Assembly: GCA_964608415.1 (NCBI GenBank)
Contig: CAZSOC010000001.1
Location: 174,083 to 238,082 of the forward strand
DNA from: an uncultured Flavobacterium sp.
Lineage (GTDB): Bacteria; Bacteroidota; Bacteroidia; Flavobacteriales; Flavobacteriaceae
DNA: 64,000 nucleotides
Direction of reading: 5' to 3'
A program made the position numbers and the translations under genes. Shown piece after piece: positions 2,877 through 58,102 of this stretch. The notes under the pieces were generated by a model. The model made no database searches. It was not told the origin of the DNA and saw nothing but the letters and a program-made list of their open reading frames with translations. Numbering within the stretch: position 1 is the stretch's first letter; each line of letters opens with the position of its first letter.

Positions 2877-4024
2877 AGAGATCAATAAAAAAACTGCTGT
2901 TTATTTTTGTTTTGATTGTACTTTCCTACAAGAATTACAGTCAAAAGGATCCTCGTGTTGACAGTATTATAGATCAGGCTACATTAAAAATATACGAAAA
3001 TCCGGATGAATCTATCCAAATCGGAAAATCTATTTACGAAGATCATCAAAATAGTAACCGTTCAAAAGTAAAAGGATTGATTTTGATTTCGGATGGATAT
3101 TCTTCCAAAAGAAATTATCAAAAAGCACTGGAATATTTAATAAAAGCCAATCAATTAAGTACAGATTTGAGTGATAAATCTCTGGAAATCAATATTTATA
3201 TTAAAATAGCTTACCAATACCAACAATTACGGATTTTTGATAAAGCTTTGGACTATCTGGAATTATCAGAAAAAATGAGTATTAACCTTTCCGAAAAAGA
3301 CTCTACATATTTGTCTTTATTGGGCAATAATTATATGATAAGAGGTTTTATTTATAAAGAAAAACTTAATTGCGAAGCCGCCGTAGTATATTTTGACAAA
3401 GGAATAGATCAATATTTAAAAATTAAAAGTTCTTTTGTTGATGCAAATCTGAGTATAGCAAATTATAACAAAGGGAATTGCTTTATACAATTGAAAAATA
3501 TCGAAGCTGCAAAAAGTAGTTTTATTACATCTATACAGATTGCAGAAAAAATCCATGCCAATAGTCTTTTGGCATTTTCCAAGAAAGGCTTAGCCGAAGT
3601 TTTTACTTTAGAAAAAGACCATCACAAAGCAATTGCTGTTTTGACAGAAGCAGAATTATTATCTAAAGATGTAGGAGATCTGGTACTTAATAAAGCTATA
3701 TACTTTTATTTCTATCAAAACTATCATGCCTTGAACGATTGGGAAAAATATCAGAAATATCAAAGATTATTTTTGAAAACACAACTCGATATTAAAGCCT
3801 TGGAAAGAAAATCGATCAGTCAGACTTTAGATCAGAATTACTCGGAACTTGAATTAGAATTAGAAAAAAAAGAACCTAACTATTTGTTTGTAATTATAAC
3901 AATAAGCGTTTTAATATTTCTAATTGTTTTTTTTATTTTTTTGAACGAAAAAAAATCACAAAAAAGACTTCAAAAACTACAGATTGAGATAGAAAAGCTT
4001 CAAAAACGAAGAAAAAGCACTTAA
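2873..4024 (+). CDS. Membrane-anchored TPR protein without DNA-binding domain
   Basis: Signal peptide ending ...YSQ, several TPR-like repeats (YQKALEYLIKA, FDKALDYLELS, ANYNKGNCF), C-terminal TM and short coiled-coil tail; ATGA overlap with the upstream gene. Confidence 0.8.
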   Translation: MKRSIKKLLFIFVLIVLSYKNYSQKDPRVDSIIDQATLKIYENPDESIQIGKSIYEDHQNSNRSKVKGLILISDGYSSKRNYQKALEYLIKANQLSTDLSDKSLEINIYIKIAYQYQQLRIFDKALDYLELSEKMSINLSEKDSTYLSLLGNNYMIRGFIYKEKLNCEAAVVYFDKGIDQYLKIKSSFVDANLSIANYNKGNCFIQLKNIEAAKSSFITSIQIAEKIHANSLLAFSKKGLAEVFTLEKDHHKAIAVLTEAELLSKDVGDLVLNKAIYFYFYQNYHALNDWEKYQKYQRLFLKTQLDIKALERKSISQTLDQNYSELELELEKKEPNYLFVIITISVLIFLIVFFIFLNEKKSQKRLQKLQIEIEKLQKRRKST

Positions 4025-4253: not shown

Positions 4254-7200
4254 ATGAAAAAAATTATTTTATTAATTACCTTTCTTTTTTCAATTGAAGG
4301 CTTTTCCCAATGTACCAGGATGTGGATGTTCCCGTATCAAACTGTGTATTCCAATAATTTAGGAGGAGTTCAAATTGTAACAGAAGGAGTAAGTACATTA
4401 GAGTATTCGGAAGTAGGAGGATTAATTGTAGGAAATGATTATGAGTTTACATTAAAATCTTCACAATCAAACCATAAGTACATTACAATTACAGATTGGT
4501 CTAATACGGTTTTAGGTCATGGTTTCTCTCCATTAACTATTGAGAACATCACCTCTTCTGAAATAAGAATGCATTATGCAGAAAATTCGGAGTGCGTCAG
4601 TTCTGAAGATATAGTAAATACCTCAACTATTCAAAATTTAATAGATTGCCCTGCGCCATCAGATATTGAAATTGCTGAGATCAATACAACTACTGCAGAG
4701 TTTATGTGGTCGGCAGTAGCCGAAGAAACGGCATGGGAAGTTTTGGTATTAGAAGCAAATGCAACACCACCAACCGATTTGACTTCAGGAATTCCGGTTG
4801 AAGATATTCCTGTGTATGTTGCAGAAAATTTAGATCCGGGATCTTATTATATCATTTATATCCGGGGAAATTGTGGGGACGAATTCAGTCCTTGGAATAA
4901 GATGTCTTTTTCAACAAATTGTAACTTACTCGACGGCTTAAATGAAAATTTTGATGTAATTCCTTCTTCATACGAATATGGAGATCTTCCGGTTTGCTGG
5001 TCAAAAATTATTTTCCCGGAAAATAGCGATAGTGCTACATTAGGAACTGTAAATTATAATTCAAATTCCGGAGAGTATGCTGTTTCTTTATATAATGGAA
5101 ACTTAGGAAACACAGGGAATATTATTTTAGTTTCTCCCGAATTATCCAATTTGTCTGATGGAACCCACAGATTAAAATTTTATACTAAAACCGCTTACGG
5201 AAACGCATTTTTAGAAATAGGAACAGTTGGATCTACTGCTAATAACGCGCCATTTTCTTTCCTTGAAGAGGTTTCTGTAAATGATGTTTATAGTCAAAAA
5301 GTAATAGATTTTAGTTTGTATGAAGGAGCAGATACTCATATTGCGATTCGTTTAAAAAGCGAACAAAACTGGACCGGGGTTTTTGTTGATGACATAATAT
5401 GGGAAGTGTCACCACTTTGTCCGGATGTTACAGATATAAGCGTATTAAATACGGATATTGATTCAGCATTAATTTCCTGGGATATCGATGGTCTTGAAAC
5501 AAACTGGGAAATTGCCTATGCAGAATTTACAGTAAATGACCCTTCGGGACTTACTCCGTTGGTAACAGAAGACAATTTAGTAAACGAAATGACCATTACG
5601 GGATTAGAATCTAACACTAAATATAAAGTTTGGATAAGATCTGTATGTGGTGAAAATCTAGGTGCCTGGATTGGTCCTGTTGTGTTTAATACTGCCTGCG
5701 AAGCAATGGATTTGTTTGTTGAAGATTTTGAATCTGCTCAAAACAATGAGCTTCCGGAATGCTGGTCGTCTATTATAAGAGGTGAGAGTGTATCGTCTAT
5801 GGCTTCGGTGTCTATTGTACAAAATAGCGCTAATTCAGGGAATCAATGTGTTGCGTTTGATAGCTGGAACTCGGGTCTGGATTCAGATATTATACTTGTT
5901 TCTCCAAATTTAAGCACATTGAATACTGCAACTCATCGATTAAAATTTTATGCAAGAAGTTATAATAATTCCAGTATTCAGGTAGGAACTTTGAACTCTT
6001 CAGCTGGTTCTGCTGTTTTTACCAATGTTAAAAATGTTAATGTAACGACCAATTATTTGGAGTATACAGTAGATTTTTCAGATTATTTGGGTACAGATAC
6101 CTACATAGGAATCAGACATAATGGAGGAGATTGGAGTACAATTCTTATTGATGATATTCGTTGGGAAAGTATTCCTGATTGCGCAGATGTACAAAATATA
6201 TCAGTTCCTTTTACAACCTTAAATACTGCAACGATAACCTGGAGTCCCGGAGATGCTGAGCAAGAGTGGGATTTGGTTTATACAAGCGGATCAGTATCCA
6301 ATCCAAATACATTAACTCCTATTAATTTGACAGTAGGAGCAGATACAGAATATATAATTAATGAACTTTCACCAAATACTTCGTATAAAGTTTGGGTAAG
6401 ATCTGTATGTGGTGAAGATCTGGGTGCCTGGATGGGACCGGTTTATTTTTCAACTCCGTGTTCTCCTACAGATTTTTTTATAGAAGATTTCGAACAAACT
6501 GCTATGGAAGAAATTCCTGCCTGCTGGAGCTCTATTCTTAGAGGGCCAAGTCTTTCTTCTTTTGCTGGAGTATATGTTTTGGATTTTCAACCAATTGGAG
6601 GTTTGAAATCTATGACATTATCAAACGGTGTTTCCGGTCCGGGAACAGATATAATTTTGGTAACTCCATATTTGGAAAATCTAACAGCAACTCCGCATCG
6701 TTTGAAATTTAAAGCTTCAGCCAATTCATCGTCTAAAGTTCAGGTGGGAACGATAAATGTTGCCAACTCAAGTGGTGTGTTTGATTTTATTGAAGAATTT
6801 CAAGTAAATTCAAGTAATCAGGAATTCACCATAGATTTTACAGATTATGAAGGAGTAGATCGATTTATCGCTTTCCGTCATAGTAACGATGATTCTTTTC
6901 AAACGATTATTTTAGATGATATAAGATGGGAAGAGGTTCCGTTATGTTCGGATGTAACACAAATTCAAGTTCCTCAAATTACTGAAAATACTGCAACTGT
7001 TACCTGGAATACATCAGGAACAGAAACACAATGGCAAGTTGCTTATGGATTAGCAACAATTACAAATCCAAATACAATAACTCCTGTACCTTCTTTTCAG
7101 ACAGAAATTAATATTGACGAACTTCAGGATAATACTCTTTATAAAGTTTGGGTAAGATCTGTTTGCGGAGATAATTTTGGAGCCTGGATCGGAGCTGTTA

Positions 7201-8501: not shown

Positions 8502-10907
8502 ATGGAATCAAATATGATTTATGTGCCGTTGGTAATGGCATTAATTGGATTGGCGTTTATGGCTATCAAACGGTCCTGGGTTTTAAAACAAGATGCCGGA
8601 GATGGTAAAATGAAAGAAATCTCAGACTATATTTACGAAGGAGCCCTTGCCTTTCTTAAAGCAGAATATCGATTACTTACCTTTTTTGTTATCGGAGCCA
8701 GTATAGCTCTTGCGGGGATTTCGTATATCGTTCCAACAACACATATATTAATAGTTGTGGCTTTTGTTTTCGGAGCAATATTTTCGGCTTATGCAGGAAA
8801 TATCGGGATGAAAATCGCTACAAAAACCAATGTTCGTACTACACAGGCAGCAAGAACAAGTTTGCCTCAGGCACTTAAAGTGTCTTTTGGAGGAGGAACG
8901 GTTATGGGGCTTGGTGTGGCTGGTCTTGCGGTTTTAGGACTTACGTCATTTTTTATTATTTTCTATCGTTTCTTTATGAATGGAGCCTGGACCTCAACAG
9001 AAGATATGACTATTGTTCTGGAAACACTGGCAGGATTTTCTCTCGGGGCAGAATCTATTGCGTTGTTTGCCAGAGTAGGAGGAGGAATATATACCAAAGC
9101 GGCCGATGTAGGTGCAGATTTGGTAGGAAAAGTTGAAGCAGGAATTCCCGAAGATGACCCGCGTAATCCGGCTACAATTGCCGATAACGTGGGAGATAAT
9201 GTAGGAGACGTTGCCGGTATGGGAGCCGATTTGTTTGGGTCTTATGTTGCCACAGTTTTAGCAGCAATGGTGTTAGGAAATTATCTGATCAAAGATATGG
9301 GAGGCAATATAGTTTCAGAAGGTTTTGAAGGAATCGGGCCAATATTGTTGCCAATGGCGATTGCAGGTTTCGGAATTCTTTTCTCAATCATAGGAACAAT
9401 GGTTGTAAAAATCAAAGACAATAATGCTAAAGAAAAACAAGTACAGGGAGCATTAAATTTCGGAAACTGGATCTCTATTATTCTTACGGCAATTTCTTGC
9501 TACTTTTTGGTAGATATGTTGCTTCCTGAAAAAATGAATATGACCTTTTTTGGAGAAGGACTAAAAGAAGTTGCTTCAATCAATGTATTTTATGCTTCAC
9601 TTGTAGGTCTGGCAGTAGGAGGATTAATCTCATCAGTAACAGAATATTATACAGGATTAGGAACTAAGCCGGTTTTGGCAATTGTTCAGAAATCTTCGAC
9701 CGGAGCAGGAACCAATGTAATTGCCGGTTTGGCAACAGGAATGATTTCTACTTTTCCAACTGTATTGCTTTTTGCAGCAGCGATTTGGGGCTCGTATGCT
9801 TTGGCAGGATTTTACGGAGTAGCACTGGCAGCTTCTGCTATGATGGCTACAACGGCTATGCAATTAGCAATCGATGCATTTGGACCTATTTCAGATAATG
9901 CAGGAGGTATTGCAGAAATGAGCGAATTACCAAAAGAAGTGCGTACCCGTACCGATATTTTGGACTCGGTTGGAAATACAACTGCAGCTACAGGAAAAGG
10001 ATTTGCTATTGCTTCTGCGGCATTAACTTCATTAGCATTGTTTGCAGCGTATGTAACTTTTACCGGAATTGATGGTATTAATATATTTAAAGCTCCGGTA
10101 TTGGCAATGTTGTTTGTAGGGGGAATGATTCCGGTGGTATTTTCTGCTTTGGCAATGAATTCTGTAGGAAAAGCAGCGATGGATATGGTGTACGAAGTAC
10201 GTCGTCAGTTTAAGGAAATTCCGGGAATCATGGAAGGAACCGGAAAACCGGAATATGGAAAATGTGTAGAAATTTCTACAAAAGCAGCATTGCGTGAAAT
10301 GATGCTGCCGGGAATTTTAACGATCGGTTTTCCAATTGCTATTGTCCTGGTTGGATTATTAGTATATCCGGATAATCATCAGTTAATAGCAGAAATGCTG
10401 GGGGGTTATATGGCTGGAGTTACCGTTTCGGGAGTACTTTGGGCAGTTTTTCAGAATAATGCCGGTGGAGCTTGGGACAATGCCAAGAAATCTTTTGAAG
10501 CAGGAGTAATGATTAACGGAGAGATGACCTACAAAGGATCTGATGCACATAAAGCTGCTGTAACCGGAGATACTGTTGGAGATCCGTTCAAAGATACTTC
10601 AGGTCCTTCAATGAATATATTGATCAAATTAACTTGTTTGATAGGATTGGTTATTGCTCCGATTTTAGGAGGACATGATGCGGTTACCGTTACAGAAGAA
10701 GTAGAAGCAATCGAGATGGTGGATGCAATTGTAAAATCTGAAAGTAAAGAAATTTCAATTGACAGATCAAAAACTACAGACGGAAAAGTAACAGCCAATG
10801 TAACTATCTCTACAATAGTCGATGGTGAAGCAAAATCAGAAACCCGGTCTTTTGAAGGAACAGAAGATGAAGTAAATGAAAAAATAGAAGAATTAAAAAA
10901 GAAATAA
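8502..10907 (+). CDS. hppA: Membrane-bound ion-translocating pyrophosphatase, K+-dependent type
   Basis: DVGADLVGKVE, DNVGDNVGD and GDTVGDPFKDTSGP motifs; many TM helices; GNTTAA (Ala, not Lys) marks K+ dependence. Confidence 0.95.
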   Translation: MESNMIYVPLVMALIGLAFMAIKRSWVLKQDAGDGKMKEISDYIYEGALAFLKAEYRLLTFFVIGASIALAGISYIVPTTHILIVVAFVFGAIFSAYAGNIGMKIATKTNVRTTQAARTSLPQALKVSFGGGTVMGLGVAGLAVLGLTSFFIIFYRFFMNGAWTSTEDMTIVLETLAGFSLGAESIALFARVGGGIYTKAADVGADLVGKVEAGIPEDDPRNPATIADNVGDNVGDVAGMGADLFGSYVATVLAAMVLGNYLIKDMGGNIVSEGFEGIGPILLPMAIAGFGILFSIIGTMVVKIKDNNAKEKQVQGALNFGNWISIILTAISCYFLVDMLLPEKMNMTFFGEGLKEVASINVFYASLVGLAVGGLISSVTEYYTGLGTKPVLAIVQKSSTGAGTNVIAGLATGMISTFPTVLLFAAAIWGSYALAGFYGVALAASAMMATTAMQLAIDAFGPISDNAGGIAEMSELPKEVRTRTDILDSVGNTTAATGKGFAIASAALTSLALFAAYVTFTGIDGINIFKAPVLAMLFVGGMIPVVFSALAMNSVGKAAMDMVYEVRRQFKEIPGIMEGTGKPEYGKCVEISTKAALREMMLPGILTIGFPIAIVLVGLLVYPDNHQLIAEMLGGYMAGVTVSGVLWAVFQNNAGGAWDNAKKSFEAGVMINGEMTYKGSDAHKAAVTGDTVGDPFKDTSGPSMNILIKLTCLIGLVIAPILGGHDAVTVTEEVEAIEMVDAIVKSESKEISIDRSKTTDGKVTANVTISTIVDGEAKSETRSFEGTEDEVNEKIEELKKK

Positions 10908-16766: not shown

Positions 16767-19454
16767 ATGCAAAAAAATATCTTTATTGTCGTGTTCTTTT
16801 TATTCGGGATTTTAGCAAAAGCCCAAAGTGTGAAACTTGAAGGATTCGTAGTAGACGAATCGGCTTTACCTCTTGAAATGGCAAATGTTATGGTAATAAA
16901 CGAGTCTACCAAAGCTATGGACGGATATTCTATTACCAATGACAAAGGCCGTTATCTTCTGAATTTAAAAGCCAATACAACTTACCTGATCAAAGTGAGT
17001 TACATTGGGTTTGTCCCTTTTGAAGAAACTATAAATACGTCAACAGAGAATATTTCAAAGAACATTATTCTTAAAGAAGGTTTAGAACTGGAAGGAATTG
17101 AGATTGTGCATGAAATGCCCGTTTCTATAAAAGGAGATACGATAGTTTACAACGCAGATTCTTTTACTACAGGTACAGAAAGAAAACTCGAAGATGTGCT
17201 CAAAAAACTTCCGGGAGTTGAAGTTAATGCCGATGGAGAAGTAGAAGTAGAAGGGAAAGTAGTACACAAACTAATGGTTGAAGGAAAAGATTTCTTTGAT
17301 GGAGATACCAAATTGGGAGTAAAAAATATTCCGGCAGATGCAATTGATAAAGTTCAGATCCTGAGAAATTATAACGAGATAGATCAAATGAAAGGGTTAG
17401 GAAACGACCAGGATAATATCGCAATGAATATTAAGCTCAAAGAAGGTAAAAAGAATTTTTGGTTTGGAGATATTAGTGCAGGAATTGGTGTTGCTCATAA
17501 AGAAGAACGATATATTGTAAACCCGAAATTGTTCTATTACAATCCAACATACAGTATCAATCTGATCACTAATTTCAACAATATAGGAGAACTGCCTCTT
17601 ACGATTCAGGATTATTTTAAAATGACGGGAGGATTTAGAAACATGATGTCCAAAGGAGGTTCTAGAATTAATATTGCTTCGAACGATTTGGGGATTATGA
17701 TGATGAGGAACAATCGTGCAAAAGAAATAGAAACCCGTTTTGGTGCCGGAAATTTTTCTTATAATGTAAATAAATCATGGCGTTTGAGCGGTTTCGGAAT
17801 TCTCTCTTCTTCTACTACAGAAATGGAAACGATATCACAATCTAAAATTTTAGATCAGGATGTAGAACAAAAAAGTACTTCTTCGTCTGTTGTAAAATCT
17901 ACTTTGGCAATGTCAAAATTAAGTTCCAGTTATAAGCCAAACACTTCCGTTCAGCTGGATTATGATGTGATGTTTAAAACCTCAAAGCAAGACGAAATGA
18001 CCCATCTGGACAGAACGGTTATCAATGCAGGAAATGCGGATGAGGAAAATATTTTGACGCAGAAAAACCAAAAACCGGTAAGTGTAACCCAAAATGCGAG
18101 TTTGTATTATACGATCAATGATAAAAATATTGTAACAGCAGAGTTGCAGCATTTATACCAAAACGAGGATCCGTTCTATAATGCAGATATGAAAACCGCA
18201 CCGTTTGATCTTTCAGGATACAATTTTTTACAAGCCAGAAACAATATCAATCAGGAACGTTTTGTGCAAACCAACAAGATCGATACAAAAATTGATTATT
18301 ATTATGTATTGACCAACAAAAGCAATATTAATTTTACTTTAGGAAATACGTATTCTCATCAAGGATTTAATTCTAATATTTTTCAGGTTCTGGATAATGG
18401 AAATGTAAATAATCTTGACGATACAGAGAATCAAAACAATGTTCGTTACGATTTTACAGATACATTTTTAGGGGTTCATTATAAAATTTTAACCGGGAAA
18501 TTTACCATAACTCCGGGGCTTAATTTTCATCAGTTTTCTATGAAAAACGAGCAGTTAGGAACAGTGTCCAAAGAAAATTTCAATAGAATTCTGCCGGATT
18601 TGAATATCATTTATCAAATCAAAAAATCAGAATCACTCACTTACGATTTTGCTTATACGAATAATTTTACCGATATTAATCAATTGGCAGAAGGTTATCT
18701 GTTTTCCGGATACCACAGTTTGTTTAAAGGAAATCGTAATTTAGAAAACTCAACGGCAATTACACACTCCTTGAGGTATTTCAAATTTAATATGTTCAAT
18801 CAGGAAAATATTTTTGCATATATCAACTATTCAAAAACACAGGATGCAATAAAAACCAATGCAGTTTTTGACGGAATCAATCAATCGTCAACGCCGTTTA
18901 ATTCTAATTTTGAAGATCAGTCCTTTACAGCATCTGCAAATTACGGAAGATCTATTTTCAGAAAACTTAAAGGAAATGTGGGCGCATCGGTAAACTGGAT
19001 GAGATACAACAACATCAGAAATTCAGAATATATTGCAGTAGAATCGCTTTTACAAAATTATACCGGGAAATTATCTACCAATTTCAGGTCGTTTCCTAAT
19101 CTCGAATTCGGATATACTTTTTCTGTAAACGATTACGCAGACAATCAGTTTTATACTCACAAACCATTTGCAAGTCTGGATTATTATTTCTTAGACGGAT
19201 TTAGTTTTAAAACAGATTATGAATTTTATAATTATTCGAACAAAGAAAAAACAGTAAAGAACCAGTATGATTTTCTTTCTGCAAGTTTTGCATATCAAAA
19301 GAAAGGCGGAAAATGGGAATACAGAATCTCAGGGACCAATTTGCTTAACACCAGATCACTCAATAATGATAGTTTTACCCAGTTCGTTACTAATACTTCA
19401 CAATATCGTGTACAGCCGCGTTATGTAATTTTAAGTTTGAAGTATAATATTTAA
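16767..19454 (+). CDS. Outer-membrane beta-barrel protein with N-terminal carboxypeptidase-regulatory-like and plug-like domains
   Basis: Signal peptide ...AKAQ; GFVVD...ANVMV...GRY...YLIKVSYIGF N-domain; IKGDTIVYNADSF...LEDVLKKLPGVEV plug-like segment; amphipathic strands ending LSLKYNI. Confidence 0.8.
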   Translation: MQKNIFIVVFFLFGILAKAQSVKLEGFVVDESALPLEMANVMVINESTKAMDGYSITNDKGRYLLNLKANTTYLIKVSYIGFVPFEETINTSTENISKNIILKEGLELEGIEIVHEMPVSIKGDTIVYNADSFTTGTERKLEDVLKKLPGVEVNADGEVEVEGKVVHKLMVEGKDFFDGDTKLGVKNIPADAIDKVQILRNYNEIDQMKGLGNDQDNIAMNIKLKEGKKNFWFGDISAGIGVAHKEERYIVNPKLFYYNPTYSINLITNFNNIGELPLTIQDYFKMTGGFRNMMSKGGSRINIASNDLGIMMMRNNRAKEIETRFGAGNFSYNVNKSWRLSGFGILSSSTTEMETISQSKILDQDVEQKSTSSSVVKSTLAMSKLSSSYKPNTSVQLDYDVMFKTSKQDEMTHLDRTVINAGNADEENILTQKNQKPVSVTQNASLYYTINDKNIVTAELQHLYQNEDPFYNADMKTAPFDLSGYNFLQARNNINQERFVQTNKIDTKIDYYYVLTNKSNINFTLGNTYSHQGFNSNIFQVLDNGNVNNLDDTENQNNVRYDFTDTFLGVHYKILTGKFTITPGLNFHQFSMKNEQLGTVSKENFNRILPDLNIIYQIKKSESLTYDFAYTNNFTDINQLAEGYLFSGYHSLFKGNRNLENSTAITHSLRYFKFNMFNQENIFAYINYSKTQDAIKTNAVFDGINQSSTPFNSNFEDQSFTASANYGRSIFRKLKGNVGASVNWMRYNNIRNSEYIAVESLLQNYTGKLSTNFRSFPNLEFGYTFSVNDYADNQFYTHKPFASLDYYFLDGFSFKTDYEFYNYSNKEKTVKNQYDFLSASFAYQKKGGKWEYRISGTNLLNTRSLNNDSFTQFVTNTSQYRVQPRYVILSLKYNI

Positions 19455-19543
19455 GGAATAAAAAGGGACGTATAAATGAGTTGACTGCAAGTTTACATCA
19501 CAATTCTGCTAAAATGAAAATTAATCTCATAAAAAATAATCAA

Positions 19544-20038
19544 ATGGAAGCAAATTCGACAGACAAAAAAAAATTTCAACTTACCGAAAACGGACAACAA
19601 TTAGGAGAGCTGATTTACGAAAATGTATTTTTCCTTAAAGCAGAAATTAAACTGTCAAATTCAGAACTGTATGAACTTGCTCCAGTTGGTTTTTTTGGAA
19701 CAAGCATTGCAGTAACCAAAAACGGAGAAGAAATAGCAAGTTTAGTGATGAATTGGCGTGGACAAATTGTAATTACTTTTCAAGGCGGACAAGAAGTTGT
19801 TATAAAATTGATTGAATTATTCAACAATAAATTCATTATTGAAAATAAAGACCAAGAAAAGTTAATTCAACTTGAACTGAAATTTAATTGGAGAGAGTTC
19901 CATTATAATTACAATATTACATACGACATCACAAATGATAATATACCTAAGGATAATTTATTACTACTACTGGGTGTATATGCTGCCAACTATTTTGTAG
20001 CCACTATGGCAGGAGCTAACGCAGGAATGATGTATTAA
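19544..20038 (+). CDS. Hypothetical protein
   Basis: Open frame 19481-20038; ATG at 19544 (MEANSTDKK) preferred. Beta-rich with a C-terminal hydrophobic helix LLLLLGVYAANYF; family not recognised. Confidence 0.65.
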   Translation: MEANSTDKKKFQLTENGQQLGELIYENVFFLKAEIKLSNSELYELAPVGFFGTSIAVTKNGEEIASLVMNWRGQIVITFQGGQEVVIKLIELFNNKFIIENKDQEKLIQLELKFNWREFHYNYNITYDITNDNIPKDNLLLLLGVYAANYFVATMAGANAGMMY

Positions 20039-20040
20039 AC

Positions 20041-20241
20041 AACGAACCACCAATATCGGTTTTGTGATAGGCGGGTATGTACTTCTATGAAAAGTCATGA
20101 TTATTTAATAGTTATACCAACAGTAACACCAACTAAATCTATAGAAAGCGAATAATAAACAAACCCAATAAAAATGGGCAGCAGAAACTTTCAGCTTCGA
20201 TTTTCCGCCACTTCCCCCAAGTTATCAGAACATTAGACAAC
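20041..20241 (+). repeat. attC-like intergenic element E1
   Basis: Starts 2 nt after the stop: AACGAACCACCAAT-ATCGGTTTTGTGATAGGCGGG...TTCGATTTTCCGCCACTTCCCCCAAGTTATCAGAACATTAGACAAC; GGCGG/CCGCC arms are complementary. Confidence 0.5.
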
Positions 20242-20265
20242 AGTATTTTAGAAACTCAATAATGT

Positions 20266-20302
20266 AAAAAATGCGAGATTTTAATTAAATCTCGCATTTT
20301 TT
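20266..20302. promoter_or_regulatory. Perfect 16-bp inverted repeat upstream of the Fic gene
   Basis: AAAAAATGCGAGATTT-TAATT-AAATCTCGCATTTTTT, immediately before a -7 box TATTTTTG at 20305-20312. Could be an operator and/or a terminator. Confidence 0.6.
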
Positions 20303-20337
20303 TGTATTTTTGAATCAATAATTATAATAACTCTAAA

Positions 20338-21636
20338 ATGATTGAACAGGCTCCCAAACCCGAGGAAAACGAACAAACTATTCCATTGATGGTAAAATAT
20401 CAAATGGATGGTTCTTTAAAAAAAATACAAGATGAATATCTGTATTGGGACAAAATCAAATATAAAGCGGAAAACTGTACTCCTATAGAGCTTTGGAGTG
20501 CATTAAAACTATTCAGAAGGTTAAGAAGAAACGAAGTCGGATTTGGAACACATAAGTTTTATTATGTGATAACGGATTATATGCAAAGAGCATTACACCA
20601 ATTTGATATGCATATCGGAGGTACATTGGGAAGTAATATAGGTATTGCCGAAACAGATAAAACTAAATTCATCATCAGTTCTATTATGGAAGAAGCTATT
20701 TCGAGTAGTCAAATGGAAGGAGCAAGCACTACAAGAAAAAAAGCTAAAGAAATGATTCAGCAGGAAAAAAAACCGAAGAATAAATCTGAACAAATGATTA
20801 TGAATAACTTCATAACAATGAAGCATATTGTCCAGCATAAAAATGAAGATTTAACGGTTGAAAACCTATTATATATTCATAAACTTATTACCAACAAGAC
20901 CTTAGAAGATTCAGAAGATGAGGGGCAATTCAGAGAAAATGATGATGTACACGTAATTAATCATTCAAATAGCGAAATTGTCCATACGCCTCCATTGAAA
21001 GAAGATCTCAATAATCTTATTAAAGATTTATGTGCTTTTTTCAATACAGATGGTTCAGATTTTATTCATCCAATCATTAAAGGTTGCATAATTCATTTTA
21101 TGATGGGTTGGATACATCCATTTTCTGATGGAAATGGCCGCACAGCAAGAGCAGTATTTTATTGGTATATGCTTAAAAAAGGATATTGGCTAACCGAATA
21201 TTTATCAATTTCACGGATTATTAAGGATACAAAATCACAGTATGAAAAAGCCTATATGTATTCAGAAGCAGATGATAACGATTTAAGTTACTTTATAACT
21301 TACCACATTAAGACTATGGAAAAAGCATTTGATGCCTTAAAAGAATATATCAACCGTAAACAAAAAGAAGTATTTCAAGCTGCAAAATTTATGAAAATTC
21401 CCGGAGTGAATGATAGAATGGCTCAACTATTAAAAATAATCCACGATGATTCTGATAGAATATTCAATATTAAAGAAATTGAAGCAAGATTTAATGTTTC
21501 GAATTACACAGCGAGAACTGATTTAAAAACTTTAGTTGAATTAGGCTTTTTAGAAATTATTCAAGTGAATCAGAAAAAGCAAAATTTCATTAAATCTCAA
21601 AACTTCGAAAAAGTTTTAAAGAAATACTTGATGTAA
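20338..21636 (+). CDS. Fic family AMP-transferase with C-terminal winged HTH
   Basis: Canonical HPFSDGNGRTAR; upstream SSQMEG matches the (S/T)xxxE(G/N) inhibitory motif; C-terminal FNIKEIEARFNVSNYTARTDLKTLVELGFL. Confidence 0.92.
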   Translation: MIEQAPKPEENEQTIPLMVKYQMDGSLKKIQDEYLYWDKIKYKAENCTPIELWSALKLFRRLRRNEVGFGTHKFYYVITDYMQRALHQFDMHIGGTLGSNIGIAETDKTKFIISSIMEEAISSSQMEGASTTRKKAKEMIQQEKKPKNKSEQMIMNNFITMKHIVQHKNEDLTVENLLYIHKLITNKTLEDSEDEGQFRENDDVHVINHSNSEIVHTPPLKEDLNNLIKDLCAFFNTDGSDFIHPIIKGCIIHFMMGWIHPFSDGNGRTARAVFYWYMLKKGYWLTEYLSISRIIKDTKSQYEKAYMYSEADDNDLSYFITYHIKTMEKAFDALKEYINRKQKEVFQAAKFMKIPGVNDRMAQLLKIIHDDSDRIFNIKEIEARFNVSNYTARTDLKTLVELGFLEIIQVNQKKQNFIKSQNFEKVLKKYLM

Positions 21637-21712
21637 AAAACAACAAGGTTTGGATTAAACTGAACTTTTTTTCGATTTTCCACCCTCTCCAAGCTGCTGG
21701 GACGAATAGAGG
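21637..21712 (+). repeat. Degenerate attC-like element E2 after the Fic gene
   Basis: AAAACAAC-AAGGTTTGG...TTCGATTTTCCACCCTCTCCAAGCTGCTGGGACG; shares TTCGATTTTCC (21671-21681) with E1 (20196-20206); GGTTTGG/CCAAGCT arms are near-complementary. Confidence 0.45.
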
Positions 21713-21790
21713 AATAGCGGAAAAATTTATATTTTTATGTTCAAACTTTAAAATTAGCTATTAAAACAATAATTATTAATAATTTTTTGC

Positions 21791-21823: not shown

Positions 21824-22168
21824 ATGAATTTAATTATCAGAATTTTAATTACGGCAATATTAGTATTATTAATTTCTAATTTTTTGCCGGGCGTAACAGT
21901 TGAGAACTTTACAACTTCAATAATTATTGCTGTAGTTTTAGGGTTGCTCAATATATTTATAAAACCAATATTGGTCATTTTTACATTGCCCGTTACTATT
22001 ATTACTTTAGGATTATTTTTATTGGTAATCAACGCATTGATTATTATGTTGTGTGCAAAACTGGTCACCGGATTCGGAGTAGAAAGCTTCTGGACGGCTT
22101 TGTTTTTCAGTATAATTCTATCCGTATTACAATCACTTGCATATTCAATTACGGGCGGGACAAAATAA
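21824..22168 (+). CDS. Four-TM membrane protein, YvlD/holin-superfamily-IV-like
   Basis: 114 aa, four hydrophobic segments, LNIFIKPIL..TLP.TI.TLGLFLLVINA pattern. Confidence 0.8.
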   Translation: MNLIIRILITAILVLLISNFLPGVTVENFTTSIIIAVVLGLLNIFIKPILVIFTLPVTIITLGLFLLVINALIIMLCAKLVTGFGVESFWTALFFSIILSVLQSLAYSITGGTK

Positions 22169-32760: not shown

Positions 32761-33897
32761 ATGAATTCGCAAAATCAGGTCTTTTTATCAATAGGGAGTA
32801 ATCAAGGGAATAGACTTGAGAACATTACAAATTGTATATCATTTATTCACAATAATATAGGTACTGTTATAAGTGTTTCCAAGCTGTACGAAACATCTTC
32901 ATGGGGTTTTGAGAGTGCCGATTTTTATAATTGTGCGGTCCTTTTACACACAAATTTTACGGCAGAAAAAATCTTGAATAAGATTTTGAAAATAGAAAAA
33001 AAGTTAGGAAGAATAAGAAATTCCAATGAGTACCAAGCGAGAATTATAGATATAGATATTATTGGATTTAACAATGAGGTTTTGCAGTCTGAAAACCTGA
33101 TCGTTCCACATCCTCAAATGCAGAACAGACTTTTTGTATTAATCCCCCTGACTGATTTGAGTGTGCAATATCAGCATCCCGGCTTAAATAAAAACCCAAA
33201 AGAATTAATCGCAATTTGTAGTGATAATAGTAAATGCAGAATGGTAGGAGATGTTGTAAACCCGATAGAAAAATACAATTTCCAGAAGCTTAATTATCTT
33301 GTAATAGAAGGGAATATCGGTACAGGAAAAACAACGTTTACAACAAAAATAGCAGAGGATTTTAATGCTAAAAAAGTATTGGAAAGGTTTGCAGATAATC
33401 CGTTTTTGCCGAAATTCTATAAAGATCAGTCAAGATATGCATTCCCTTTGGAGATGTCTTTTTTGGCAGATCGTTACCAGCAACTTTCGGATGATTTGGC
33501 TCAATTTGATTTGTTTAAAGATTTTATTGTAGCGGATTATCATATTTTTAAATCATCTATTTTTGCGAAAGTTACTTTAACAGAAGATGAATACAGACTA
33601 TATAGGAAACTTTTTGAAATTATTTACAAAGAGATGAAAAAACCGGATCTGTATGTTTATTTGTATCAAAATACAGAAAGGTTATTAAAGAATATTAAAA
33701 AAAGAGGAAGGAATTATGAGCAGAAAATTCCTAAAGAATATTTGGAAAATATCAGTAAAGGATATTTGGATTTTATAAAAACTCAAACAGGATTAAATAT
33801 CCTGGTAATTGATGTTTCTGAAAAAGATTTTGTAAAAAACCAAAAAGATTATATATTCATTTTAGATCAGATTCAAAGTGCTATAGATAATATGTAG
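32761..33897 (+). CDS. folK: HPPK (FolK) fused to a C-terminal deoxynucleoside-kinase domain
   Basis: LSIGSNQG, RIIDIDII, PHPQMQNRLFVL followed by IEGNIGTGKTT and IKKRGRNYE. Confidence 0.9.
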   Translation: MNSQNQVFLSIGSNQGNRLENITNCISFIHNNIGTVISVSKLYETSSWGFESADFYNCAVLLHTNFTAEKILNKILKIEKKLGRIRNSNEYQARIIDIDIIGFNNEVLQSENLIVPHPQMQNRLFVLIPLTDLSVQYQHPGLNKNPKELIAICSDNSKCRMVGDVVNPIEKYNFQKLNYLVIEGNIGTGKTTFTTKIAEDFNAKKVLERFADNPFLPKFYKDQSRYAFPLEMSFLADRYQQLSDDLAQFDLFKDFIVADYHIFKSSIFAKVTLTEDEYRLYRKLFEIIYKEMKKPDLYVYLYQNTERLLKNIKKRGRNYEQKIPKEYLENISKGYLDFIKTQTGLNILVIDVSEKDFVKNQKDYIFILDQIQSAIDNM

Positions 33898-53333: not shown

Positions 53334-53419
53334 CTTGCCGACAACACAGGTAGTGCTTATTTCTTTTCGAATTTGCTAATTCTAAGGTTATAAGTTTTTT
53401 TCGCCCATTTATGGGCAGT
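53334..53419 (-). repeat. Compact attC-like element between amidohydrolase and serine hydrolase
   Basis: Minus strand ACTGCCCATAAA (53419-53408)...GTTGTCGGCAAG (53345-53334); 86 bp. Confidence 0.55.
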
Positions 53420-54764: not shown

Positions 54765-54850
54765 TTTCTTTTAATTTATTGTTTTGTTACAAGTACTCTG
54801 GACTTTTGTAAAATTGATCATATAGGGAATAGTATTGGCTAAGTTAAGAA

Positions 54851-54875
54851 AAAAGCCAATGCAAAAAGCATTGGC
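54851..54875 (-). terminator. Terminator of the ArsR-SRPBCC operon
   Basis: Minus strand GCCAATGC-TTTTT-GCATTGGC-TTTTTT. Confidence 0.75.
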
Positions 54876-54932
54876 AGCATACGAAGACGAAATGTTTGAT
54901 TTAGCGTAACTCTGCTATTTGGAAAAATAATT

Positions 54933-58065: not shown

Positions 58066-58102
58066 CTTGTTGCTAATGGTTAGCGGTTTTTCCAAGCTGT
58101 GG
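58066..58102 (-). repeat. attC R'-like half element upstream of the ArsR unit
   Basis: Minus strand CCCACAGCTTGGAAAACCGCTAAC-CATTAGCAACAAG; its end resembles CATTAGACAAC at 20231-20241. Confidence 0.45.

Follow-up and report, generated by a model that had tools for sequence, protein, structure and literature searches.

How two accessory genes came to stand between unrelated chromosomal neighbours is the question raised by one islet in a 64,000-nucleotide (nt) window of DNA from an uncultured Flavobacterium sp. The islet lies between a gene for a CarboxypepD_reg-type outer-membrane barrel (16767-19454, stop codon at 19452-19454) and a PF04020 holin-like gene (21824-22168) that is followed by tig, clpP and clpX. 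It holds a hypothetical gene (gene 1) and a gene for a Fic protein, each trailed by an intergenic element, here called E1 and E2; these genes and elements, like both flanking genes, are on the plus strand. An earlier note on this DNA had proposed an independent insertion by the same system as an array at 52-58 kilobases (kb), the elements forming a dispersed family rather than one integron. The window corresponds to positions 174083-238082 of contig C1 in a genome (G000) of 2.9 Mb, 132 contigs and ~32% G+C. Our analysis makes it likely that the islet is a fossil mini-array of cassettes from the genome's own integron-like system, and the central idea of the earlier note, that the elements are a dispersed family belonging to one cassette-capture system, holds.

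The evidence that carries this reading comes from a family of attC-like sites spread over the genome (contigs, genomes and loci are designated below by the letters C, G and L). When window sequences were compared with the whole genome by blastn-short, 20184-20214 within E1 proved to be 97% identical to part of an intact site on another contig (C6:87684-87714), and the 54836-54889 spacer of the 52-58 kb block matched the same C6 element. The latter starts with CGGCATATAAC directly 3' of a stop codon, contains a 19-bp imperfect stem and ends with CGTTATGGGCAAC just 5' of the next gene. Profiles of the 5' and 3' arms revealed about 20 sites in the genome, which have attC anatomy and stand directly after stop codons. 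E1, E2 and the 54.8-kb spacer all match this one family, as expected if the same system made both blocks, and homologues of the elements occur next to unrelated genes elsewhere. Since a repetitive array fragments a short-read assembly, most sites are no more than a few hundred bases from an end of a small contig, and the assembly breaks inside them; the main array is fragmented beside its recombinase over C18/C120 and about 15 further small contigs. Relics also lie in the interior of large contigs, namely C1 (the islet), C2 (97.7-101.6 kb), C9 and C25. The family is dispersed, as had been proposed, but the contrast drawn with an integron does not stand, as the genome holds an integron-like platform plus dispersed relics.

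Sites of the family follow one order: R'' (ending in AAC), a spacer, L'' (GGTTTTGCAAAATGGCGGG), a loop of 40-150 nt, L' (CCGCCACTTCGCCAAGC), a second spacer (CGAAAACC) and R' (GTTA/G…), so that R'' after the open reading frame (ORF) and R' at the 3' end form inverted core sites. In the nine full sites, 86.8% of the cells of a 17-bp stem are paired versus 70.3% in shuffled sequences (0/500); compensatory changes are found at 10 pairs, and pairing falls to 37-46% when the stem is slid. Two symmetric mismatches are conserved; they read A·C in the top strand and become G·T pairs in the bottom one, which accordingly gives the better fold. The centroid energies of intact sites were -17.5 and -20.6 kcal/mol for the bottom strand versus -8.2 and -17.5 kcal/mol for the top, and the bottom-strand folds gave z scores of -2.1 and -2.8. 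No extrahelical (bulged) bases were seen in the family consensus. The decisive signature of an integron, pointing to a circular intermediate, is that R'' is complementary to the start of its own cassette, as on C132 (GTTATAGGGC… with …GCCCTATAAC) and C114 (GTTATGCGT… with …ACGCATAAC). The same rule is obeyed, cassette by cassette, by arrays in three related genomes (G013, G011 and G009).

Two repeated sequences were seen alongside these sites. A 176-nt unit without an ORF, of about 65% G+C in the 32% G+C genome, occurs in at least five places (C98:1147-1322, C69:1136, C69:2260 and C30:34190, all on the minus strand, and C6:86222); all five match a 77-nt query at 100% identity, and the three copies whose full sequence was read do not differ. 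The unit is flanked exactly by an attC 3' spacer on one side and a GTTAGC core on the other, ends in an attC-like arm of its own, contains a perfect 12-bp hairpin (GATGTGGCGAAA/TTTCGCCACATC) and had no Rfam match at E<=0.01; it is a candidate structured RNA or empty cassette. A group IIC-attC intron, considered as the G+C-rich insert in sites, was ruled out by the lack of an Rfam match and by the attC-like arm. The other repeat, an element end beginning GTAACTGTTGCACAACTCTTCCAAAAAACTAAC…, was found at C6:88440-88500 and at the ends of C53, C56, C69, C74, C98, C109, C114 and C124; on C6 it abuts a cassette site, beginning immediately behind R'' (GGCATATAACACGG). This element is probably an insertion sequence, and its position suggests that it inserts into cassette sites.

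The genome's best match to integron-integrase models is a 346-residue protein encoded at C18:160-1200 on the minus strand. It passes the NF040815 model ('tyrosine recombinase/integron integrase') with 227 bits against a cut-off of 220 and fails TIGR02249 with 205 bits against a cut-off of 265, positions 180-234 of the latter model being unmatched. Where VchIntIA (2a3v) has 58 residues the protein has 16, which means that it lacks the IntI-specific domain; among solved structures, XerA-type enzymes (5hxy and 4a8e) come closest to it. The recombinase is thus Xer-like. Its gene is transcribed toward its attI and array: about 110 nt of inverted-repeat-rich sequence follow the stop codon and end, attI-like, in …GGGGTATAAACGA/GTTAGTGGCAAGC, where the slash, here and below, marks the crossover. 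From the GTT onward, the sequence behind this attI is identical to a cassette that stands behind an attC on C120, the ends of the two contigs overlapping. The cassette in question (GTTAGTGGCAAGCTTAACCGAACAG…; C18:1-160 and C120:1-100) is thereby placed twice, and either a duplicate or two arrangements coexisting in the culture, the second of which would point to current recombinase activity, may account for this. Of 24 congeners, 14 carry an orthologue of the recombinase, and none was found among 16 genomes of other families; many of the orthologues lie at contig edges with the 3' end pointing outward, and in G011, G013, G006 and G009 the orthologue heads a co-oriented row of small ORFs. A platform locus conserved among the congeners was looked for and not found. 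We interpret these data as an integron-like system of the genus Flavobacterium with a Xer-type recombinase. A pair of attI-like sequences of ~110 nt, near-identical to each other (…TATGGCACAAAGCCAACC…GTGAGAGGTATAAATGA/GTTA…), was also observed at C74:5090-5210 on the plus strand and C104:1906-2010 on the minus strand, with no recombinase gene alongside. Both precede defence-like genes: one is followed by a DUF262-like gene of 580 residues and the other by two genes, for an AAA-ATPase and a 245-residue protein, that together resemble an anti-phage system.

The elements of the islet can be read against this family. E1, which occupies the 299-nt spacer between gene 1 and the Fic gene, had been described as a single element of ~200 bp; it is instead a composite of a half-site, a gene stub and a decayed site. 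The half-site, E1a (20039-20076), consists of an R''-like ACAAC, a spacer and an L''-like GGTTTTGTGATAGGCGGG, and is matched by the 5'-arm profile at 20048-20075 with E=0.79 genome-wide, in the correct order and on the correct strand. The post-stop sequence ACAACGAACCACCAA is common to gene 1 and its F. enshiense homologue, and E1a reads as gene 1's own site minus a deleted 3' half. The stub (20066-20158, or alternatively from 20087) includes a 52-nt stretch, 20097-20148, that is 90% identical to C24:1811-1760 (blastn-short, E=4.8e-11). By tblastn its product, ending …MKSHDYLIVIPTVTPTKSIESE before two stop codons, aligned with …IKGYDYLIVIPTVTPAKYIESK before one stop codon with 21/29 positives, and a cassette relic on C24 encodes the intact, 392-residue homologue. 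The stub accordingly consists of the last 20-29 codons and the double stop of a deleted cassette gene. E1b (20157-20228) is a short decayed site with an L''-like arm AATAAAAATGGGCAG, a 3' arm CTTCGATTTTCCGCCACTTCCCCCAAG that has lost ~8 nt of its spacer and, at 20221, an R' core GTTATCAG; it was aligned with family members, and the 3'-arm profile, searched with nhmmer against the whole 2.9-Mb genome, matched it at 20184-20221 with E=5.7e-7.

E2 (21637-21712) makes up the first 76 nt of the 187-nt spacer between the Fic gene and the holin-like gene. Its anatomy was worked out by comparison with C90 by eye and by alignment to family members: it keeps the R''/L'' start AACAACAAGGTTTGG, a loop and a 3' arm (AAACTGAAC…TTCGATTTTCCACCCTCTCCAAGCTGC), and lacks about 55 nt, namely the remainder of L'' and some of the loop. 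By anatomy the islet would be a decayed cluster of attC sites lacking integrases (CALIN) with three relic sites, and no recombinase gene was found in it or its flanks. All the short motifs quoted in the earlier note were located in the window, two of them displaced by 1 nt: GTTGACTGCAAG upstream of gene 1 lies at 19480-19491 (not 19479), and GGGACG, near both outer edges, at 19465 (not 19464) and 21699. Of the sequences said to be common to E1 and E2, TTCGATTTTCC has exactly two copies in 64 kb, at 20196 and 21671, and CCAAG is at 20217 and 21689. Other parts of that description were less durable. The sequence CATTAGACAAC is indeed present at 20231-20241, and the reverse complement of CATTAGCAAC at 58069-58078, but this CATTAG…CAAC motif is unconserved across the site family and was rejected as its end motif; likewise, GGCGG at 20070 and CCGCC at 20205 exist, but a pairing of 5 bp between them as arms is insignificant. 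A further repeat, TGATGTA(T/A)(T/A)AAACAAC, is shared by the ends of gene 1 and Fic and probably reflects chance in part, its Fic half being derived from the flank of a palindrome described below.

At the left junction (19470-19497), 15 nt 3' of the barrel stop codon, GTATAAATGA/GTTGACTGCAAGTTTACA forms an attI-type core with the crossover at G/TT and a cassette-type start, and GTATAAATGA/GTTGACTGCAAG copies the junction at attI. The 13-mer GTATAAANGAGTT has four copies in the genome, which are those of the C18 attI (C18:65), C74:5198, C104:1906 and the left edge of the islet. It carries weight because it stands directly 5' of a cassette-type start; nine specified bases directly 5' of a given GTT have a chance of about 1e-5. 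A position weight matrix built from 15 cassette starts ranked 19480 on the plus strand sixth among ~128,000 positions of the window. The three best matches to this matrix were at 53334-53351 and 9171-9188 on the minus strand and at 33473-33490 on the plus strand. The second-best site, 53345 on the minus strand (GTTGTCGGCAAGTGTATC), is an R'-like core of the 52-58 kb block that lies just 5' of a serine-hydrolase gene and fits a cassette start.

Both genes of the islet have homologues that are true cassettes elsewhere, in keeping with the suggestion that a hypothetical gene and Fic are cassette cargo. Gene 1 (19544-20038) is open back to a TTG at 19481, with the ATG at 19544 as the probable start, and encodes 164 residues by comparison with its homologues; it matched no Pfam or NCBIfam family. 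We found 243 homologues with 60-93% identity across Flavobacteriia, Chitinophagia and Cytophagia, while tig is only 50-70% identical among congeners. A similarity that so exceeds that of housekeeping proteins suggests horizontal transfer. Among 40 relatives, G013 alone has a homologue; it is 32% identical and forms a true cassette in an array without a recombinase. That array (L043; G013:C1 4450-5990) is on the minus strand directly 5' of tig, where other species have the holin-like gene, and is adjoined at 5990-6160 by an unexplained G+C-rich stretch (…GGCCCGCGTGAAGGATGGCAGTGAAAATCC…). The homologue in F. enshiense DK69 lies in a cassette relic, and a 93%-identical copy in metagenomic contigs is a singleton behind …ACGA/GTTAGCGG. 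Between the decayed-array genes of F. enshiense DK69 (L060) we also observed a ~200-nt repeated intergenic element (3543-4003, 4490-4808 and 6343-6634), distinct from the attC-like sites, with a terminator hairpin AAAAAACTACAAC…GTTGTAGTTTTTT and conserved downstream boxes. An AlphaFold2 model of gene 1 (predicted local distance difference test score 84.9) shows a 12-stranded beta-barrel around a C-terminal hydrophobic helix; its best natural match in the PDB is 1zxu (template modelling score 0.58), which we take to be a tubby/LURP-one fold.

The Fic gene (20338-21636, 432 residues) matched Pfam PF02661 (3.5e-19), HTH_DeoR/HTH_11 and NCBIfam SoFic, and residues 118-414 matched the SoFic structures 3eqx and 9tc4 with E=1e-14. 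The same chain carries an inhibitory motif S-x3-E-G (S123-SQM-E127-G128), an active-site loop H260-PFSDGNGRTAR-271 and a C-terminal winged helix-turn-helix (wHTH) domain; motif and loop fit the class II patterns (S/T)xxxE(G/N) and HxFx(D/E)GNGRxxR. SoFic proteins (3eqx, 3zcn and 9tc4) share this domain order, the S-x3-E-G motif, the HPFxDGNGRxxR loop and the C-terminal wHTH, although the likeness is distant (57 bits; 74 bits against a family cut-off of 550), and the present protein differs in an N-terminal extension of ~60 residues and in a conserved palindrome upstream. We therefore class it as a SoFic-type (class II) AMP-transferase that inhibits itself, and not as one half of a toxin-antitoxin pair, the role implied by calling it a toxin. 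Orthologues with at least 50% identity occur in three of 24 congeners, each time in a different context, so that neither islet gene is syntenic and conserved across the genus.

The palindrome (20266-20302) has perfect 16-bp arms, AAAAAATGCGAGATTT and AAATCTCGCATTTTTT, and the only hits of an Rfam scan of the islet were noise on it. A perfect palindrome of at least 10 bp with the core CGAGAT-N-ATCTCG lies 5' of 39 of 44 metagenomic Fic homologues and also 3' in eight; it is found in G005, G013 and G019 as well. Copies on both sides of Fic were observed in G005, G013 and L106-L124, those in G005 being an inverted pair. Its distribution assigns the palindrome to the Fic module rather than to the cassette system; it probably serves the wHTH of the Fic protein itself as an operator and doubles as a terminator, or may instead mark the ends of a small mobile unit. 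A scan for sigma-70 promoters did no better than shuffled sequence (19 versus 16.2). Just past the palindrome, 26 nt 5' of the Fic start, TATTTTTG at 20305-20312 fits TAnnTTTG, the Bacteroidetes -7 promoter motif. As to mobility, we scored as exact cassettes those loci in which a post-stop 9-mer ending in AAC is the exact complement of a GTT… 9-mer lying 75-126 nt upstream. This form was found in 4 of the 44 metagenomic Fic loci versus 0.1 expected; the cassette at L073 starts with GTTAGGCAA and ends with TTGCCTAAC, a 9/9 match of R'' to the start. Fic modules of this kind thus travel as cassettes.

Several results weigh against reading the islet as cassettes of this system, and they bear on its rivals. 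The 3'-arm match of E2 (21656-21697) has E=0.08 genome-wide and is weak alone, and the R' core of E2 is mutated, with GGGACGAATAG (GAATAG) in place of the expected GGGACGTTAG and no GTT. Core sites are present only in part (ACAAC and GTTATCAG in E1; ACAAC and the mutated R' in E2), and the R'' boxes of the islet, TTAAACAAC and AAAAACAAC, match their own cassette starts at only 5/9 and 4/9 positions. When both strands were searched for attC-like hairpins, as the earlier note had advised, whole E1, its 3' part and E2 folded no better than shuffles (z -1.4 to +0.8); E1b formed none, E2 formed none (z +0.8 and +0.3), and the arms of E1 and E2 were left unpaired. A covariance model of whole sites had no significant match in the 64-kb window, E1 being hit at E=4.4 in the wrong register, because loop sequence dominates the model and the islet sites are broken. 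For the left-edge 13-mer, about 1.4 copies in the genome are expected by chance. Most Fic homologues are not in cassette form, the module brings its own palindrome, and Fic may have come in by a different route, with an older relic already on either side. The missing folds and covariance match, in an AT-rich region with many short chance repeats, are also what one would see if E1 and E2 were chance resemblances or generic terminator repeats of the repetitive extragenic palindromic or miniature inverted-repeat transposable element kind, unrelated to site-specific recombination. We consider that very improbable: the E1 3' arm is significant across the whole genome, the arms come in correct order and strand directly after stop codons, E1 encloses a gene stub from another cassette locus, and the family obeys the R'' rule, which repeats and terminators do not. 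That no relic forms a hairpin means that the cassettes are immobile and the islet a fossil. It is unlikely, though less so, that cassette status was confined to gene 1 and the deleted gene and that the Fic module, as a separate selfish or horizontally moving unit, landed between two older site relics independently of the cassette recombinase. The palindromes on one or both sides of Fic homologues, the inverted right-hand copy in G005 and the varying contexts are in favour of such a unit; in G000, moreover, the expected downstream palindrome stops after GTAAAAAA, where E2 begins, and the R'' of E2 mismatches the start of the Fic unit (GTTATCAGA). Yet palindrome-bearing Fic modules are exact cassettes in L073, L096 and L097, in L067 a 5' arm of the site family (ACGGGGTTCGCGTCAGGCGAG) comes after a homologue with 83% identity, and the unit in G000 is bounded precisely by an R' core on one side and an R''/L'' start on the other.

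How the cassettes reached this place is bound up with the history of the locus. The barrel gene adjoins the holin-like gene in none of the relatives examined, and the proposed search for relatives that join the two, and for a breakpoint between them, fails because the flanks come from different ancestral neighbourhoods. A convergent 416-residue gene, whose G000 orthologue (C1:266389-267636) is now 73 kb away, comes after the barrel gene in 11 of 19 relatives; in 6 of 11, a 254-residue gene lies 5' of the holin-like gene, and its G000 orthologue (C1:147418-148182) is 48 kb away. The islet therefore fills a lineage-specific synteny breakpoint. Non-coding flanks were aligned with those of relatives and gave no insertion boundaries, the relatives being too distant. 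It is possible, if somewhat doubtful, that the cassettes were never inserted here, the islet being the proximal end of a former array or platform (its attI core and first cassettes) that a rearrangement moved beside the barrel gene, with recombinase and most of attI lost at the breakpoint. This would explain why the islet stands exactly where two ancestral neighbourhoods meet and why its left edge keeps only ~13 nt of attI-type sequence, and it has a parallel in the recombinase-less array directly 5' of tig in G013. However, no site relics were found at the other two rearrangement junctions (C1:148.2 kb and 266-268 kb), which leaves no evidence that site-by-site recombination caused the rearrangement; an ancestral platform at the islet locus is unsupported, since the platform locus is unconserved among congeners; and the orphan attI-like copies on C74 and C104 establish that such cores can stand alone. 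Because of these orphan cores we slightly favour insertion in situ, behind a pseudo-attI (GTATAAATGAGTT-like), over arrival as the head of an array, at roughly even odds, and the islet would in that case be the independent insertion first proposed.

Under the reading of the islet as a fossil mini-array, the chemistry of recombination and the order of events would be as follows. By analogy with integrons, the tyrosine recombinase would recognise a folded single strand of the site behind each captured gene, and strand exchange in the GTT core, with attI or another site, would add genes singly and in one orientation. The space separating the barrel and holin-like genes would once have been occupied by at least three cassettes, preceded by an attI-type junction (GTATAAATGA/GTT): gene 1, a gene of the 392-residue type and the Fic module with its palindrome and promoter. 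A later deletion would have created E1 by joining the first site to what was left of the second gene; another would have taken the 5' stem arm of the last site, whose GTT core was also destroyed, giving E2. Gene 1 and Fic would now be fixed as ordinary accessory genes, with Fic expressed from its own module.

The islet alone is a dead relic, with a regulator-enzyme module, Fic, that apparently travels as a cassette. It illustrates cassettes found off the platform behind an attI-type junction, and decay by deletions between sites that leaves gene stubs. We entertain, as a tentative idea with less than even prospects, a 'distributed integron': Flavobacterium and its relatives would own an integron lineage whose Xer-type recombinase never had, or lost, the IntI domain and whose cargo would not be confined to a single array, and attI-type cores (GTATAAAyGA/GTT) such as those at the islet, C74 and C104 would be secondary landing pads that seed single accessory genes, including regulators such as Fic-wHTH, beside core genes, there to turn into fossils. 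Provided that the system is real and active, folded-site cassette capture needs no IntI-specific domain, the part thought to read the hairpin; accessory genes have a route to core chromosomal loci in a large environmental genus that also contains fish pathogens; and standard tools would miss the system. Full-text literature searches retrieved no description of a Flavobacterium cassette system, and one with a Xer-type recombinase appears to be undescribed. Integron surveys have found almost none in Bacteroidota: the IntegronFinder survey of 2022 lists one complete integron in Bacteroidetes proper, in Salinibacter ruber, and earlier only In0 (PMC9024848). The same survey defines a CALIN as at least two attC sites with no integrase nearby (PMC9024848).

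Among known systems, the closest likeness is to sedentary chromosomal integrons and CALINs. Shared with them are units of one gene and one folded site in co-oriented arrays, …AAC and GTT… cores, a crossover core common to neighbouring cassettes and an R'' complementary to its own cassette start; so, too, are sites homogeneous within the species, assembly breaks in the array and decayed relics without integrase elsewhere in the chromosome. The Flavobacterium system differs in that its recombinase lacks the IntI-specific domain, that its sites show, in place of bulged bases, two conserved mismatches (A·C in the top strand, G·T in the bottom one), and that the array lies 3' of the recombinase gene and runs in the same direction. 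In 'inverted-integrase' integrons of the Treponema denticola type, the integrase is transcribed in the direction of the cassettes and keeps the additional IntI domain. The direction of recombinase and cassettes is thus the same in that type and in Flavobacterium, whereas the domain is absent from the latter. Xer/dif systems, such as the pdif modules of Acinetobacter plasmids, bracket accessory modules with short sites that are double-stranded and of ~28 bp. These dif-type sites are not known to have a long covarying hairpin, to follow a rule by which R'' matches the start of its own unit or to form a unidirectional array behind an attI. The recombinase is of the Xer family in both these systems and Flavobacterium, and the Flavobacterium enzyme is set apart by an extra N-terminal domain of ~70 residues.

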